64,000 nucleotides of DNA from IMG/VR virus record IMGVR_UViG_3300021962_000026; one strand, written 5' to 3'. The DNA comes from a virus. The notes below the pieces were generated by a model that worked only from the letters and a program-made list of their open reading frames with translations, was not told the origin of the DNA and did no database searches. Within the stretch, counting starts at the first letter, position 1, and each line of letters opens with the position of its first letter. Made by a program: the position numbers and the translations under genes. Of the stretch, positions 35,877-64,000 are shown piece by piece.

Positions 35877-37631
35877 ATGTTTAAACTGAATACACTCACA
35901 GTAAAGAACTTCATGAGCGTGGGCAATCAGACCCAGGCTGTTGACTTTGACCGTAGAGACTTAACTCTTGTGCTAGGTGAAAATTTAGATCAAGGAGGTG
36001 ATGACTCTGGTGCCAGGAATGGCACGGGTAAAACCACAATCATCAACGCACTAAGTTATGCTCTCTACGGCCAAGCCCTTACAAATATCAAGCGTGACAA
36101 CCTTATCAACAAAACCAACGGCAAGAACATGCTGGTTACAGTGGACTTTGATGTAAATGGTGAACGCTATCGTATTGAGCGTGGGCGTAAACCCAATGTA
36201 CTAAAGTTCCAGGTTGGTGACGTCGAAGCAGAAGAACAACAGGGCGAAAACAGGGAAACACAATCAGACATAGAAAAATTGCTTAACATGAGTCACGAAA
36301 TGTTTAAGCATCTGGTTGCTCTTAACACATATACACAGCCGTTCCTAAGTTTGAGTGCTAACGAACAACGTGCTATTATTGAGCAGATGTTGGGCATTAC
36401 GCTGTTGAGTGAAAAAGCAGAGCGTTTAAAAGAACAAAATAAGCAAACAAAAGATTTAATCACTGAAGAAGAATATCGCATCAAAGCAGTACAGGATGCT
36501 AACAACAAGATTCAGGAACAGATTGAGGCTATGCAACGCAGACAGCGTATGTGGATAGCAAAGCGCGATACTGAAGTTACTGAACTGGAAAATGCTATAA
36601 ACAGTCTAAGCCATGTTGATATTGAATCTGAACTACTGGCACACACTGATCTTAAACAATGGCAAGAAAAGAAAGCAGTACAGGATCAACTTAACAAGGA
36701 TATAGCACAACTAGAAGCACAGATGTCAAGGGCGTCGAGAGAGCTAGAGCGCACAAACAAAAGTTTGGAAGCTGCTAAATTGGGCAAGTGCGGTAGTTGC
36801 GGTCAGAGCACAGACCACTTGGACAGCCACAAACAGCACATTGCTCAAATAGAAACAGAGCATACTGAAGCTACTGCTTTTTATAATGATTTGCAAGCAG
36901 AAAAAGATGCACTGATTAGCAAACAAGAAACACTGGAAGCACGACCCAATACATTTTACGATGATGTAACAGAAGCACACAACCACAAGAGTACACTTGC
37001 TACACTGGATTCACAGTTAAAGAGCAAGCAAACAGAAACGGATCCTTATCAGGATCAGATTGAAGAGATGCAAACTGCCGCAGTGCAGGAAGTAGATTGG
37101 GATACTATAAACAGTCTTACAAAAGTAAGAGAACACCAGGACTTCTTGTTAAAACTGCTAACAAACAAAGACAGTTTTATCCGCAAACGCATTATTGATC
37201 AGAACTTGCAGTTCCTTAACACCAGATTAACATACTATCTAGGGCGCATGGGCTTGCCTCATACTGTTCGCTTTATGAACGATTTGGGTGTAGAAATACA
37301 AGAACTGGGCAGAGACCTAGACTTTGACAACTTGAGCAGAGGCGAGCGCAACAGGCTTATCTTAAGTTTAAGTTGGGCGTTCCGTGATGTATGGGAGAGC
37401 TTGTATCATCCTATCAATCTACTGTTTATTGACGAAGTTGTTGACAGTGGTATGGATGCCAGTGGTGTTGAGAACGCACTTGCATGTCTCAAGAAGATGA
37501 GCAGAGATCGTAACAAGAGTGTGTGGTTGGTTAGCCACAAAGACGAGCTTGGCGGTCGTGTTAACAACATACTCAAAGTTATCAAAGAAAACGGCTATAC
37601 TAGCTATGACACTGATATTGAAGTTATTTAG
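35877..37631 (+). CDS. recombination ATPase subunit (T4 gp46/Rad50/SbcC-like)
   Basis: Walker A NGTGKT, coiled coil with CGSC zinc hook, LSRGE signature, Walker B LFIDE, VSH. Confidence 0.93.
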   Translation: MFKLNTLTVKNFMSVGNQTQAVDFDRRDLTLVLGENLDQGGDDSGARNGTGKTTIINALSYALYGQALTNIKRDNLINKTNGKNMLVTVDFDVNGERYRIERGRKPNVLKFQVGDVEAEEQQGENRETQSDIEKLLNMSHEMFKHLVALNTYTQPFLSLSANEQRAIIEQMLGITLLSEKAERLKEQNKQTKDLITEEEYRIKAVQDANNKIQEQIEAMQRRQRMWIAKRDTEVTELENAINSLSHVDIESELLAHTDLKQWQEKKAVQDQLNKDIAQLEAQMSRASRELERTNKSLEAAKLGKCGSCGQSTDHLDSHKQHIAQIETEHTEATAFYNDLQAEKDALISKQETLEARPNTFYDDVTEAHNHKSTLATLDSQLKSKQTETDPYQDQIEEMQTAAVQEVDWDTINSLTKVREHQDFLLKLLTNKDSFIRKRIIDQNLQFLNTRLTYYLGRMGLPHTVRFMNDLGVEIQELGRDLDFDNLSRGERNRLILSLSWAFRDVWESLYHPINLLFIDEVVDSGMDASGVENALACLKKMSRDRNKSVWLVSHKDELGGRVNNILKVIKENGYTSYDTDIEVI

Positions 37632-37642
37632 ACCAAAATATC

Positions 37643-37672
37643 TTGATTTTAAAATACAAATCAATATATAAT
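37643..37672 (+). promoter_or_regulatory. putative sigma70 promoter with palindrome upstream of the GIY-YIG gene
   Basis: TTGATT(37643-48)-N18-TATAAT(37667-72); inverted repeat TTGATTT/AAATCAA (37643-49/37658-64). Confidence 0.4.
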
Positions 37673-38117
37673 GAACATGTTATGGCATCACAAAGGCAAA
37701 CTAGTAGAAGAAATACCTGAAGGCAAAATAGGGTTTGTATACCTTATAACAAACTTAGAAACAGACCAAAAGTATATTGGCAAAAAACTGGCTCAATTCA
37801 AAAAAACTAGACCACCCCTCAAAGGCAAAACTCGCAAAAGACGTACAACAGTGGAGAGCGATTGGCGTGACTACTGGGGATCGTCCGAGCACCTGCAGGC
37901 AGATGTAGAACGACTTGGCACAGACAAATTTACAAGAGAAATACTATTCTTTTGTGAAACCAAAGGCGAAATGTCATACTTAGAGGCAAAAGAGCAATTT
38001 GACCGCCGTGTATTAGAGACGGACGAGTATTATAACGGTATTATTAATGTAAGAGTAGGCGGCTCAAATATTCTTAGACAAAGGCTACTAGAACAGGCAA
38101 AACAATCCAACACTTAA
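37671..38117 (+). CDS. GIY-YIG endonuclease (single catalytic domain; Seg/EndoII-like); start may be 37677
   Basis: GFVYLITN...KYIGKK, DYWGSS, conserved Glu in YLEAKEQF, YYN; only 148 aa. Confidence 0.85.
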   Translation: MNMLWHHKGKLVEEIPEGKIGFVYLITNLETDQKYIGKKLAQFKKTRPPLKGKTRKRRTTVESDWRDYWGSSEHLQADVERLGTDKFTREILFFCETKGEMSYLEAKEQFDRRVLETDEYYNGIINVRVGGSNILRQRLLEQAKQSNT

Positions 38118-38455
38118 GGCTAGCGGGCCAGTTATAAATCCGCTGTGGAAAAAGCAGTTAACACCTGCACACGCAACACATCGATCGACACCCCTCTGGG
38201 TGAGCCAACAATAGAATTGGGCTACTGGTTGATGTAGGTAGAATGTTGGCTATCGAAACACCGCACATTACACATAAAAACCAGATGCACTGGAACGAAG
38301 CACTGGGTAGCGAAAGCGATGTCGATGTAGGTTGGGAAAGGTCAGAGCCCATTGTGTAGCGGAAAACACCTACTTCCGGGAAGGCTGGATAATGACGGGA
38401 AATGTCACCAGATTGGACGGAGCCGAGAGTGGTTCCGTCTGACTGAAACTTCAGG
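38118..38455 (+). ncRNA. candidate large structured ncRNA (unclassified)
   Basis: Longest non-coding gap in window, GC-richer than flanks; many helices, e.g. AGCCAACA/TGTTGGCT (38203-10/38244-51), ACATCGA/TCGATGT (38178-84/38322-28), GACGGAGCC/GGTTCCGTC (38416-24/38431-39). Confidence 0.55.
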
Positions 38456-38478
38456 GAAATATAATCTCAAGTAAAAAA

Positions 38479-38522
38479 CAAATACGAACGATAGTGAGTA
38501 TTTGGATGAACGAAGTTCATCC
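38479..38522. other. two adjacent hairpins (tandem-GA stem and cGAAg triloop)
   Basis: CAAATAC-GA-AC-GATA-GT-GA-GTATTTG and GGATGAAC-GAA-GTTCATCC. Confidence 0.7.
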
Positions 38523-38617
38523 CGTGAGGTTAAAAAAAATTAAAATAAGTTATAATTGCCCTTAAAAAAGATGTTAAATAACTTACCTTTGGAATAAAAG
38601 GGCAAGGAGTAAAAATT

Positions 38618-38800
38618 ATGAATAAAAGAGATGTAGTGGAATTAGAAAGCGCATTTCTAGAATTTTGTAAGACAGCTCAACGACTCGGATATAAGTTCTC
38701 CCACGGAAGTACACTAGAAGTACATCATGAAAGTGAATCCCCACACAACTTAATGGGTAGAGTAAAACTTGACGCTAATGATTTTCTTAAAGAAGATTAA
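38618..38800 (+). CDS. hypothetical protein (60 aa)
   Basis: AAGGAG SD at 38604-38609; TTAAATA late-promoter-like motif at 38574-38580. Confidence 0.6.
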   Translation: MNKRDVVELESAFLEFCKTAQRLGYKFSHGSTLEVHHESESPHNLMGRVKLDANDFLKED

Positions 38801-48577: not shown

Positions 48578-48667
48578 TATAAATACTTATGCTTATAAAT
48601 TAGGCTTATGCGGCCCCACCGCGTACCAAGTAGAACTTGGATTGGACTTCTTGAAAGGAGAAAACAA
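48578..48667 (+). promoter_or_regulatory. late promoter TATAAATA plus structured 5' leader
   Basis: TATAAATA 48578-85 followed by four consecutive hairpins, the last covering AGGAG. Confidence 0.6.
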
Positions 48668-49129
48668 ATGGGTAGACCTCTAAGAACAGCAAAAACAGTT
48701 GATGGTAATTTTCACGTAGGTGACATTGGCGCAGATTCCGGTACAGGCGAACAAATTCAAATGATCGCATATGTTACAGGTGGAAGTGCAAATAATACAT
48801 CAAGTATTACACAAAAAGGTACACATCGTTTTCGTGTAACAACAAGTGATGGCACTGAAACTTGTACACTTAAGGCAGTAGCAAGTGGTTCACTTGCCGA
48901 AGGTGAATGTCAGCTTACAGCCACAGACAGTGCGGCCGGTACATACTTTGTTAGTCGTGTTTCAAACAACTGGATTGAAATTGGTGCTTTAGGCACAGGT
49001 TCACAAGTTGCAGTAGGCGACCGTGTACAGTGGGTAAATGACCAAACTTCAGCAGTTGCTATCGATACCTCAACATATGCTATTGGTGATGTAAATCAAC
49101 CAGGCAGATTCCAAGTTGTAACAAACTAA
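48668..49129 (+). CDS. putative virion (head-associated) protein
   Basis: True start MGRPLRT at 48668 after AAAGGAG; late promoter; follows capsid gene. Confidence 0.6.
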   Translation: MGRPLRTAKTVDGNFHVGDIGADSGTGEQIQMIAYVTGGSANNTSSITQKGTHRFRVTTSDGTETCTLKAVASGSLAEGECQLTATDSAAGTYFVSRVSNNWIEIGALGTGSQVAVGDRVQWVNDQTSAVAIDTSTYAIGDVNQPGRFQVVTN

Positions 49130-60300: not shown

Positions 60301-63300
60301 ATGGCCATAACACGTATTAAAACCAACCAGATTACAGATCTTGCAGTTACTAATGCTAAGATTGCTAATTCTACCATTGCCGGCGGTAAATTAGCCGACG
60401 ATCTTACATATGGCAGTAACCTTACTGTTTCTGGTAACCTAACAGTTAGTGGTACAACCACAGCAGTTAGTACAACAAACACACGAGTTGATGACGCTAT
60501 CATTACTTTGGCTCAGGGCACATCCGGTGCTCCAACTGAAGATGCTGGTATCTTAATTGACCGTGGTAGTTCTTCCAACGTTGCTTTACTATGGGATGAA
60601 TCAGCAGATCAATTTGTTCTTGCTGATGTCGGATCAGAAGACGGTGACACAGCTGGAAACGTAACTATTAGCTCCTACAGCCCACTTCAAATTGGCGAAC
60701 TTACAGCAACAGGCGCAACGGCTGGTAATGTCCAAGTTGGCGTTACAGGAGACAACGAAATTGACACATCAAGCGGCAACTTAACCATCGACAGTGCTGG
60801 TGGTACTATTACACTTGATGACAATGTTACTATTAGTGGAACATTAAGTGTTTCAGGTGGTAATTTAACAACAAACGTTACTGACACACAAGTAATGTTT
60901 TCAAGCAGCGGCGTTATTTCTGGCGCAGCAACCCTTACCTGGGACGGCACAGACCTAACAGCAGGCAGTGCAAAAATTAGTGACCTTACAGATAACAGAA
61001 TTGTTATTGCTGGTGCAAGTGGTGCTATTGAAGACGACGCAAACCTTACAATGGACGGAACAACCTTTAAAGTTGGTGGTGGCTATGGCTCAACAGGCTT
61101 TAGCATTACAATGGAAGGTAACACAAGCACAAACGGTACACTTACCGTAGACGGCACATCAACACTTGGTGTTATTAATGCAAGTGGACTTGCTTCACTT
61201 GATGGTGGTATTGATGTTGATGGTGCTTTCACAGTAGCAGACACATCAGGTAATGTTGCTACAACTGGTACACTAGATGTAGGCGGTCTTGCCTCACTTG
61301 ATGGTGGTATTGATGTTGATGGTGCATTTACTGTTGCAGACACATCAGGTAATGTTGTTACCACTGGTACATTAAGTGCAGGTGCAACTACATTATCAAG
61401 CGCAGCGATTAGTGACTTAACAGATAATCGCATTGTGTTTGCAGGTGCTAGCGGTGAACTAGAAGACAGTGCAAACCTAACTTTTGATGGTACTACATTT
61501 GAAGTTGGTGGTGGTTACGGTGCTACTGGTGTTGATATCGCTATGGATGGTAACATCAGCACAAACGGTACACTAACTGTTGACGGTACTTCAACACTAG
61601 GTGTTGTTAACGCAAGTGGTCTTGCATCACTTGATGGTGGTATTGATGTAGACGGTGCATTTACCGTAGCAGATACAACAGGTAATGTTGTTACAAGTGG
61701 TACATTAAGTGCTGGTAATACATCAGTTGCTACACTAGATGCTTCAGGTCTTGCTTCACTAGATGGTGGTATTGACGTAGATGGCGCATTTACAGTAGCA
61801 GATACAACAGGTAATGTTAATACAACTGGTACACTCACCGTTGGCGGTGCAACTACACTTAATGGTGCAGTTACATTAGGCGACGCAAGTGGCGACGCTA
61901 TTACTGTTACAGGTACAGCAACATTTGGTCAAAGTGCAGACTTTGACGGCGGCTTTACAGTTGCAGCAAGTCAAACAATTGACGTTGGTACAAACAAAAT
62001 CACTAACATGGCTGATCCAGTTTCAAACCAAGATGCAGCAACCAAAGCATATGTTGACTCACAGACATCAGGAACAAATACAACTGTTACTGACGGAAGT
62101 GCAAGTGATACATTTATCCTTGGTGACACAATTACATTTTCTGCTACAGCAAATGAAACAACAACCGCGGTTACAGTAGGCGGTAGTGGTCCAATTGTTA
62201 CTATTGGTTTACCAGACGATGTTACAATCGGTGGTGTACTTACAGTTACAGGCAACTTGGTTGTTAACGGTACAACTACTACACTATCAACAACTAACTC
62301 AGTAGTTGAAGACAACTTGATCGAGTTAGGTAACGGCACAACTGGCGTTCCTGCTAATGACTCAGGTCTTATCATCGAACGTGGTGATTCCGCCAATGCA
62401 TTGTTTATCTGGGACGAATCAGCAGATGTCTTCGCATTTGGTACTACATCAGCAGCCGCAAGTGCAACTGGTAATATCACATTTACAGATGCTGGTATTA
62501 GTGCAAGTACAGGTGCTTTCAGTAGTACACTAAGCGTAACTGGCACAACTACAGCAGGCGTTGTAAACCTAAGCGGTCTACTAAGTGCAGATGCTGGTAT
62601 TGATGTTGATGGAGCATTTACAGTTGCTGACACATCAGGTAATGTTGCTACAACTGGTACACTAGATGTAGGCGGTCTTGCCTCACTTGATGGCGGTATT
62701 GATGTAGATGGTGCGTTTACCGTAGCAAATACATCAGGTAACATTGCTACAACTGGTACATTAAATGTTACTAGTACCTCAACTCTTGGTGTTATCAACG
62801 CAAGTGGACTTGCTTCACTTGACGGTGGTATTGATGTTGATGGTGCGTTCACCGTAGCAGATACATCAGGTAACGTTGTTACAACTGGTACATTAAGCGC
62901 AGGTGCAACTACATTATCAAGCGCAGCCGTAAGTGACCTAACAAACAATCGTATTGTTATTGCTGGCACAAGCGGTGAACTAGAAGACGATGCAAACCTA
63001 ACATTTGACGGCACAACTTTTGAAGTTGGCGGTGGTTACGGCGCAACTGGTGTTGACATTGATATGTCAGGTAACATTAGTGCTAATGGCGGTATTACTG
63101 TTGATGGTACTTCAACACTTGGTATTATCAACGCAAGTGGACTTGCTTCACTTGACGGTGGTATTGATGTAGACGGCGCATTTACTGTTGCTGACTCAAC
63201 AGGTAATGTTAGCACAAGTGGTACATTAGATGTTACTGGTACTTCAACACTTGGTGTCATTAATGCAAGTGGACTAGCAAGCCTAGACGCTGGTATTGAT

Positions 63301-64000
63301 GTAGATGGTGCATTTACAGTAGCAGATACAACAGGTAATGTTGTTACAACAGGTACATTAACTGCTGGTAATACATCAGTTGGTACACTTGATGCTTCCG
63401 GTCTAGCAAGCCTAGACGGCGGTATTGATGTTGACGGTGCGTTTACTGTTGCAAATACATCAGGTAATGTGAGCACAAGTGGCACATTGGCTGCTGGTAA
63501 TACAACAATTACAGGTACATTGGACGTTACTGGACTTGCAAGTCTTGATGGTGGTATTGATGTTGATGGTGCGTTTACAGTTGCTGATACATCAGGTAAC
63601 GTTGCAACAACTGGTACACTAAGTGCTGGTGCAACTACACTTTCAAGTGCTGCTGTTAGTGACCTAACAAGTGGTCGTGTAGTACTTGCAGGTACTAGTG
63701 GTGAACTAGAAGATAGTGGTAACTTAACATTTAATGGTAGTACACTTGCTGTTACAGGTGCTATTACAGCATCAAGCAATGTTGACATTGCAGACGCCGG
63801 CTCACTAAGAGTTGGTACAGGCAATGACTTTACTATCAACCATAATGGTACAGACACAACTATTGCAAACGGTACTGGTATCCTTGCTATTAACGGTACA
63901 GCAACTAGCTCAATTCGTGTTAACGAAGCAGGCGCAAATGTTGACTTTGTTGTAGAAGGTGATAGTAACACTGCACTACTAACAGTTGATGCAAGTGGTG
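60301..64000 (+). CDS. very large repetitive tail-fibre/virion protein (partial, >1230 aa, runs off window; absent from ORF track)
   Basis: ATG 60301 (MAITRIKTNQITD) after GGAGGG SD and AATAAATA (60245-52); frame open to the window end (...TVDASG). Confidence 0.85.
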   Translation, partial: MAITRIKTNQITDLAVTNAKIANSTIAGGKLADDLTYGSNLTVSGNLTVSGTTTAVSTTNTRVDDAIITLAQGTSGAPTEDAGILIDRGSSSNVALLWDESADQFVLADVGSEDGDTAGNVTISSYSPLQIGELTATGATAGNVQVGVTGDNEIDTSSGNLTIDSAGGTITLDDNVTISGTLSVSGGNLTTNVTDTQVMFSSSGVISGAATLTWDGTDLTAGSAKISDLTDNRIVIAGASGAIEDDANLTMDGTTFKVGGGYGSTGFSITMEGNTSTNGTLTVDGTSTLGVINASGLASLDGGIDVDGAFTVADTSGNVATTGTLDVGGLASLDGGIDVDGAFTVADTSGNVVTTGTLSAGATTLSSAAISDLTDNRIVFAGASGELEDSANLTFDGTTFEVGGGYGATGVDIAMDGNISTNGTLTVDGTSTLGVVNASGLASLDGGIDVDGAFTVADTTGNVVTSGTLSAGNTSVATLDASGLASLDGGIDVDGAFTVADTTGNVNTTGTLTVGGATTLNGAVTLGDASGDAITVTGTATFGQSADFDGGFTVAASQTIDVGTNKITNMADPVSNQDAATKAYVDSQTSGTNTTVTDGSASDTFILGDTITFSATANETTTAVTVGGSGPIVTIGLPDDVTIGGVLTVTGNLVVNGTTTTLSTTNSVVEDNLIELGNGTTGVPANDSGLIIERGDSANALFIWDESADVFAFGTTSAAASATGNITFTDAGISASTGAFSSTLSVTGTTTAGVVNLSGLLSADAGIDVDGAFTVADTSGNVATTGTLDVGGLASLDGGIDVDGAFTVANTSGNIATTGTLNVTSTSTLGVINASGLASLDGGIDVDGAFTVADTSGNVVTTGTLSAGATTLSSAAVSDLTNNRIVIAGTSGELEDDANLTFDGTTFEVGGGYGATGVDIDMSGNISANGGITVDGTSTLGIINASGLASLDGGIDVDGAFTVADSTGNVSTSGTLDVTGTSTLGVINASGLASLDAGIDVDGAFTVADTTGNVVTTGTLTAGNTSVGTLDASGLASLDGGIDVDGAFTVANTSGNVSTSGTLAAGNTTITGTLDVTGLASLDGGIDVDGAFTVADTSGNVATTGTLSAGATTLSSAAVSDLTSGRVVLAGTSGELEDSGNLTFNGSTLAVTGAITASSNVDIADAGSLRVGTGNDFTINHNGTDTTIANGTGILAINGTATSSIRVNEAGANVDFVVEGDSNTALLTVDASG
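61185..63640 (+). repeat. intragenic tandem/dispersed repeats encoding GLASLDGGIDVDGAFTVADTSGNV
   Basis: About 11 copies with DGGIDVDG/DAGIDVDG at 61201, 61300, 61633, 61762, 62590, 62689, 62821, 63154, 63286, 63415, 63547. Confidence 0.9.

Follow-up and report, generated by a model that had tools for sequence, protein, structure and literature searches.

The window, by which we mean the whole 64,000-nucleotide stretch of viral DNA analysed here, is by its gene content part of a large T4-related phage genome. Its gene order runs from the late sigma factor through gp47, a methyltransferase, gp46 and a small nuclease to a 500-nt gap and a 60-aa ORF. Beyond this ORF lie a convergent baseplate hub gene, a long divergent gene, and the portal and capsid genes. 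The cultured Pseudomonas jumbo phage PA5oct has the same gene order, and the host genome of the window is an uncultured, T4-related jumbo phage. The features in and around the gap are as follows, in positions of the window.

35877–37631, plus strand: gp46/SbcC-like recombination gene (Pfam AAA_23/SMC_N), the fixed upstream neighbour
37665–37672, plus strand: probable promoter core of a leaderless transcript of GIY-YIG gene and RNA, predicted from a hexamer in homologs
37671–38117, plus strand: small SegE-type GIY-YIG nuclease (PF19835, PHROG447) with Y24, Y35, G37, E105 and N122 conserved
38107–38460, plus strand: twin-box structured RNA, ~355 nt, overlapping the last nuclease codons; ends placed by conservation
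38107–38249, plus strand: 5′ domain, closed by helix 38107–12/38244–49 (covariation)
38122–26/38140–44, 38145–47/38170–72, 38154–57/38165–68 and 38178–87/38226–35, plus strand: helices of the 5′ domain, which has two optional hairpins besides (covariation)
38252–38377, plus strand: pseudoknotted core (covariation)
38252–56/38322–26, 38270–74/38353–57 (crossing), 38281–84/38303–06, 38327–32/38368–73 and 38333–36/38348–51, plus strand: helices of the core
38292–95/38374–77, plus strand: invariant candidate pairing in the core
38397–38405, plus strand: box 1, 7 nt (38397–403), and the two bases 3′ of it, which would lengthen a possible hybrid with the box 2 template strand
38416–38439, plus strand: hairpin between the boxes, 3′ strand invariant
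38454–38460, plus strand: box 2, identical to box 1 (identity across loci); the proposed RNA invasion site
38461–38617, no strand assigned: A+T-rich tail (28% GC, by base composition), containing hairpins A and B
38480–38503, plus strand: ssDNA-type hairpin A, with tandem GA mismatches and a GATA loop; sole occurrence in the 64-kb window
38504–38522, plus strand: ssDNA-type hairpin B, with a C(GAA)G triloop; sole occurrence in the window
38618–38800, plus strand: 60-aa ORF that accompanies the window's tail type, found in 10 other loci at 36–65% identity
38797–39893, minus strand: convergent baseplate hub gene and small partner ORF, the fixed downstream neighbours

The gp46/SbcC-like gene lies upstream of the RNA in 132 of 138 informative loci, and the hub gene with its partner ORF lies downstream in 116 of 119. 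The 60-aa ORF has a consensus sigma70 promoter in two relatives (L203, L211). Five records carry a single copy of the RNA and one carries two, about 181 kb apart. This last, the 330-kb record G005, holds two different RNA subtypes (130816–130932 and 311606–311717), about half a genome from one another. Elsewhere in the window, at 48590–48670 on the plus strand, the Rfam freshwater-2 RNA (RF02980, 66 bits) stands upstream of a late gene. RNA-bearing phage-like fragments also occur in bacterial metagenome bins (L334–L338), one labelled Bifidobacterium; we rejected a location in bacterial islands, all five genome matches being such fragments.

What kind of protein precedes the gap? It had been read from sequence as a nuclease of 148 aa with a catalytic domain only, and a SegE-type GIY-YIG domain is indeed all that it contains (PF19835, E 2e-34). 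The fold is nearest to the catalytic domain of I-TevI (Z 7.0, rmsd 2.7, 77 aligned); a Foldseek search gave no match at E 0.001, nor did a sequence search of solved structures. The C-terminal DNA-binding modules of homing endonucleases are missing, as had been said, but this is not unusual, since T4 EndoII has 134 residues in the structure that was matched. The true start is probably 37677, about 5 nt after a TAANTA-like hexamer (167 homologs). In the same homologs the promoter ahead of the gene looks late-type, and a sigma70-like site at 37643–37672 also scores upstream of it. Like the Seg endonucleases and T4 EndoII, the protein has a GIY-YIG catalytic domain whose Tyr, Glu and Asn are kept in homologs. 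Unlike the Seg proteins, which are encoded by sporadic genes and possess the C-terminal module, it is conserved like a core gene and sits in a fixed slot that it shares with a RusA-like resolvase.

The sharing of this slot bears on its function. A RusA-like PD-(D/E)XK gene follows gp46 in three of the four loci that lack GIY-YIG, and in L293 as well; the PDDEXK_15 gene replaces GIY-YIG in L236 (3565–4071), L219, L263, L293 and G005 (130015–130506). Whole-record searches, made by protein queries with positive controls, found two records with the RusA-like gene only and three with GIY-YIG only; no GIY-YIG match came from three complete cultured genomes that carry the RusA-like gene. Because the two genes swap in one slot after gp46, the GIY-YIG protein is probably, on this small sample, a substitute Holliday junction resolvase. 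The family, PHROG447, is matched by 784 phage records and is often mislabelled NAD synthetase; the RusA-like replacement suggests that it is a resolvase-like nuclease.

Is the gap the ornate non-coding RNA that the sequence-only reading proposed? It holds no credible ORF (38118–38617), and 38107–38460 is richer in GC than the window (49% versus 39%), both as reported. Across 67 homologs of the window's subtype, covariation establishes a real, multiply pseudoknotted RNA. In a 75-pair structure with crossing helices 95.9% of cells are paired; the figure is 86.8% after shuffling and about 40% after sliding. These controls lean in the structure's favour, the structure having been chosen from the same 67-homolog alignment. 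Thirty-six of the 75 pairs are compensatory, with both sides changed; pairs that never vary were not counted as evidence. Pair 38179:38234, for instance, is UA in 39 homologs and CG in 28, and all five pairs of the crossing helix 38270–74/38353–57 are compensatory. Paired columns hold 363 G-U cells against 87 A-C cells, and therefore the plus strand is the one that folds; the fold z-scores are −4.0 for the plus strand and −2.6 for the minus strand. Since 38107–12 pairs with 38244–49, the RNA begins within the last nuclease codons. The hairpin loops of its body are biased to GNRA (83:19). The 3′ strand of the inter-box hairpin has alternative invariant partners (38340–46/38438–44 and 38292–96/38432–36).

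All the segments that the sequence-only reading quoted lie where it placed them, although about half of its helices turn out to have other partners. Four helices hold across the 67 homologs (38121–26/38140–45, 38154–57/38165–68, 38189–93/38198–202 and 38416–24/38431–39), as does the hairpin 38310–17, a site of variable-length inserts. The segment 38368–73, offered to either copy of a repeat, pairs with the second copy (38327–32) in 67 of 67 and not with the first. The stem 38393–96/38404–07 is present but confined to the window's tail type. Two proposals gave way to different pairings: 38178–81 joins 38232–35 rather than the 38322–28 side, and 38244–49 joins 38107–12, inside the nuclease gene, rather than 38203–10. 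Three others (38225–30/38279–84, 38218–23/38346–51 and 38222–25/38234–37) are broken in homologs. The 9-nt direct repeat (38231–39, 38324–32) is identical in only 2 of 67, and the TATAAAT at 38133, suggested as a separate promoter, is found in 1 of 67 and is not the RNA's promoter, because it lies downstream of the RNA's first helix strand. Overlooked were the repeat 38397–403/38454–60 and the DNA hairpins at 38480–38522.

Neither Rfam (at the gathering threshold and at E 10) nor ARAGORN matched any RNA, tRNA or tmRNA on the element, and blastn against cultured phages and plasmids left it unmatched; tmRNA and tRNA were rejected accordingly. Blastn linked all but one of 54 non-redundant downstream regions, a set made up of the window and of nuclease-first loci with 500 nt or more beyond the gene. 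The subtypes differ strongly in their 5′ parts and have a common 3′ domain. Nine sister loci score 60–119 bits against Polynucleobacter-1 (RF01718), the match lying in the first 140 nt of a sister subtype behind the same gene. These RF01718-matching loci carry the same twin-box 3′ domain and tail, whereas neither the 5′ domain nor the core of the window gives an RF01718 match even at E 10, and the Rfam model spans only 141 nt, omitting the boxes and the tail. The supplement of Weinberg et al. (2010) placed Polynucleobacter-1 downstream of a family possibly homologous to PSSM2_218, which it did not recognise as a nuclease (PMC2864571); the window's nuclease is 42% identical to PSSM2_218. The gene–RNA link was thus glimpsed in 2010 without recognition of the nuclease, and in the literature that we searched Polynucleobacter-1 is mentioned by a single paper. 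We conclude that the element is an uncatalogued subtype of a widespread family of twin-box RNAs.

What are the twin boxes? In the window they read GGGAAAT, at 38397 and 38454. Two 7-mers, 47–68 nt apart, are identical in 203 of 207 non-redundant loci, and more than 20 different 7-mers are in use. In an anchor-only test, which does not select for identity, the boxes were identical in 148 of 153 loci, against 25 with partners shuffled. We place about 52 box changes on the nuclease tree, with almost no intermediates. The window's tail type is also found in phages whose nuclease is only 60–62% identical, and therefore the tails recombine. One natural deletion (L031:5440–5800, the same contig as L215) has lost box 1 and the inter-box hairpin and kept the tail hairpins.

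Where the boxes and their extensions do differ, at positions 7–9, the mismatches are one-sided. Box 1 has G where box 2 has A, or U where box 2 has C, in 162 cells; the reverse kind occurs in 2. At position 9 the reverse wobble was seen 2 times against 22 expected and the forward 39 against 55, and on the tree these form 28 forward clusters and 1 reverse. Such mismatches would be tolerated in a hybrid of box 1 RNA and the box 2 template strand, which would span 9 bp in the window. The bias is to be read with care: the G at position 8 could instead pair with the C that precedes box 1 and so close a loop, and directional bias can arise from base composition, as it does, in the opposite sense, at position 11. 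The boxes nearly always have A at position 6 and a purine at position 1, features that pure self-pairing does not call for. No complementary anti-box was found within the element. Three other uses of the box were rejected: a restriction target (the own genome shows no depletion of its own box), a sequence read by nuclease residues (no residue changes consistently with it) and a complement of tRNA anticodon loops, position 2 often being G, with which the purine at tRNA position 37 is incompatible.

The tail after box 2 is different in kind from the RNA body. C(GNA)G and C(GNNA)G loops are stable in DNA, and hairpins bearing them, on both strands, occur in 174 of 189 tails against about 2% of shuffles. 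The tail hairpins have no GNRA bias (57:61). Hairpin A is present in 152 of 193 tails against 10 matches in 1.6 Mb elsewhere; its enrichment over flanking DNA is about 500-fold and that of hairpin B about 150-fold. To judge from these predicted single-stranded hairpins, the tail is DNA-like.

The hairpin A pattern has a single match in ColE1, some 140 nt beyond the origin on the RNA II-sense strand, at what we take to be ssiA. ColE1 also has twin G6 runs, at 928 and 1175. In the ColE1 R-loop rG/dC pairing is essential (PMC4412123), and a primosome assembly signal is exposed downstream (PMC4412123, PMC5043065, PMC3167613). The phage element resembles the ColE1 origin in having a long folded RNA, then a same-strand repeat by which RNA might pair with template DNA, and then, farther along the RNA-sense strand, predicted hairpins of the shared pattern. 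It differs in that its boxes are variable 7-mers about 57 nt apart rather than G6 runs about 247 nt apart, in belonging to a phage rather than a plasmid, and in that an antisense RNA I was not identified. A search of the window gave no RNAI match and no RNA II similarity, and our model R1 had no match in ColE1.

We suggest, at a probability of roughly one half, that the element is an RNA-primed replication origin of jumbo T4-related phages, working like ColE1 RNA II. Transcription would run through the nuclease gene into the RNA, which, as the covariation indicates, folds into a multiply knotted scaffold. The scaffold would present box 1; sequence evolution suggests that box 1 pairs, over 8–10 bases, with template DNA at box 2, which lies about 57 nt farther downstream, and so seeds a persistent RNA–DNA hybrid. 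The displaced strand would then form hairpins A and B and load helicase and primase, while the 3′ end of the RNA would prime synthesis. The GIY-YIG protein would be a conserved recombination nuclease in the resolvase slot and not the RNA's dedicated effector. A replication primer was among the options named by the sequence-only reading, and it is the one that the evidence favours, at even odds.

For this origin speak the covariation in box identity, the directional mismatches, the tail hairpins and the fixed position between gp46 and the hub gene, all of which would fit it. Gene orientation lends weak support: of 20 stretches sampled from a 345-kb record, 17 run in the direction of the RNA, which lies at 207 kb, and the strand switches between samples at 195 and 220 kb. 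In the replication skew test at four-fold sites the signal was dominated by codon usage. At 61971–63971 of the window two long minus-strand ORFs with inverted four-fold skew (+0.70) are probably shadows of plus-strand genes. Against the origin stand the promoter ahead of the nuclease gene, which looks late-type (those of T4 origins are middle promoters); the phage of L031/L215, without box 1 and hairpin; and the knotted 355-nt core with invariant loops, which exceeds the obvious needs of priming. The origins of T4 itself are R-loop primed, and for them a middle promoter with an unwinding element suffices (PMC4412123). With oriF and oriG the window has in common a T4-related phage and a transcript followed by an A+T-rich tract; the review's description of them contains no conserved ornate RNA or twin boxes (PMC4412123). 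Structured motifs linked to replication regions are known in ARRPOF, GEBRO and PAGEV, which average 223–349 nt (Weinberg et al. 2017, PMC5737381). Those motifs are plasmid-borne, and the phage RNA has no Rfam match.

Could the RNA instead act in trans, as an independent large scaffold, sponge or decoy whose boxes bind two copies of one fast-evolving partner? The partner would be a protein, or an RNA with G/U-tolerant pairing, and the tail hairpins a separate DNA signal or a terminator. Both boxes lie within similar repeated modules in most subtypes, the A at position 6 fits a protein reader, the C and U that alternate before the boxes would be tolerable to a G-rich partner, and in size and knotting the RNA resembles orphan ornate RNAs. 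A third partner, however, would not lead one to expect the wobble-side base always in box 1. Nor does it sit well with some 52 concerted changes accompanied by no matching change in a protein, or with DNA-type hairpins at a fixed distance from box 2 in all subtypes. We regard this explanation as rather doubtful. It is unlikely that the element is a self-targeting device for DNA invasion, with box 1 as a reprogrammable guide of 7–9 nt; such a device would open the locus that encodes it, at box 2, and pass the branched DNA on to an exchangeable nuclease, GIY-YIG or RusA-like.

Does the RNA direct the adjacent nuclease to a branched structure at box 2, as its cofactor, for example to make a nick for replication restart or the first packaging cut? 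The linkage noted in the sequence-only reading is usual in relatives. A GIY-YIG gene is directly upstream of the RNA in 105 of 105 informative loci from an RNA-first search with the window's subtype, and within 2 kb in 190 of 196 loci with enough upstream DNA; in a wider search it was inverted in 17 loci, displaced by 1–3 kb in 9 and absent in 4. Some small nuclease gene neighbours the RNA at almost every locus, also where the gene is inverted or has given way to one of another fold, and the RNA overlaps the 3′ end of the gene as the reRNA of TnpB overlaps its own. The nuclease has a basic β-hairpin insert (residues 42–62), and 26 of 80 contigs (L001–L080) end within 600 nt downstream of its stop against 2 upstream. 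But two unrelated folds would need the same RNA, which in a 330-kb, 93%-complete record without a GIY-YIG homolog stands, in the window's subtype, behind the RusA-like gene. Close GIY-YIG homologs, 45–72% identical, also live without the RNA (Melnitz, phiM12, S-SRM01, ACP17, L061/L067). In Melnitz (64% identical), phiM12, S-SRM01, ACP17 and P-SSM2 the gene is present with no room for the RNA, and a model search of the first four found none. Because each occurs without the other, the RNA is not a dedicated guide of the GIY-YIG protein. The adjacency is explained by the conserved gp55–gp47–gp46–resolvase operon, found also in PA5oct. The contig ends are scattered over 20–600 nt, matching the expectation for assembly breaks, and are probably breaks at a conserved or strain-variable RNA, a packaging start being the alternative reading. 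A cofactor role is, on balance, quite improbable.

We think it very unlikely that the RNA is catalytic, splicing, circularising or processing itself, with the boxes as successive substrate sites that dock on one core and a hairpin unit of ~57 nt released or circularised. Such an RNA would be in keeping with the knotted, invariant core, in which the hairpin 3′ strand takes part in alternative invariant pairings, and two identical sites would suit a two-step reaction. No gene is interrupted, however; the flanking genes are intact and Rfam holds no matching ribozyme core, on which grounds group I and II introns and known ribozymes were rejected. Moreover, no internal complement co-varies with the boxes, and the 5′ domains differ strongly between subtypes.

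Hardly any credence can be given to the nuclease–guide pair of HEARO/OMEGA type that had been proposed, here a programmable GIY-YIG nuclease aimed at foreign DNA with the 7-nt box as seed: the boxes do change with little change in protein (95–96% identical proteins have different boxes) and gene and RNA are tightly adjacent in the window's subtype, but each is found without the other, the own box is not depleted in the own genome, the synteny is fixed rather than mobile, and of the variable guide that was sought no long form was found, only the 7-nt boxes varying. HEARO/OMEGA systems pair IscB, IsrB or TnpB, with RuvC and/or HNH nucleases, with an omega RNA whose variable guide of 16–20 nt has a matching target. 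The likeness is that of a nuclease gene followed by an overlapping pseudoknotted RNA. Here, in contrast, there is GIY-YIG only and no RuvC or HNH, no transposon context, and a gene and an RNA that separate in both directions and so do not form one mobile unit.

Do cultured phages possess the element? In PA5oct (L379:4481–5995) and the Sinorhizobium phage Phosso (L381:3986–5000) an inverted RusA-like gene is followed, at the syntenic position, by a gene-poor gap of 1.0–1.5 kb; the annotation of the PA5oct gap includes tiny ORFs that are perhaps not genes. In Phosso an RNase HI gene directly follows the gap; none was found beside the environmental loci. Model R1 detected no twin-box domain in PA5oct, Phosso or SCTP-2, and its SCTP-2 match (E 0.05) was rejected as lying inside a gene. 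The likeness amounts to a weak 34-nt motif in PA5oct and one C(GAA)G hairpin in Phosso, and homology to the window's RNA is at most possible. Four ncRNAs have been reported for PA5oct (PMC7318152); they are not at the syntenic gap.

We know of no account of how the jumbo T4-related phages of lakes and oceans start their replication. If the element is their origin, it would be the phage counterpart of ColE1 RNA II, present across hundreds of contigs, and it would come with a built-in genetic test, in which one box is swapped and the other changed to restore function. A very common and widely mislabelled phage gene would, besides, gain a likely role as resolvase substitute. Should the element prove a self-targeting device, jumbo phages would possess an RNA-guided module for initiation, and a new box sequence could redirect it. 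And if the element is no origin, it would still be a strong structural target, as a large and knotted orphan RNA whose two boxes co-evolve.
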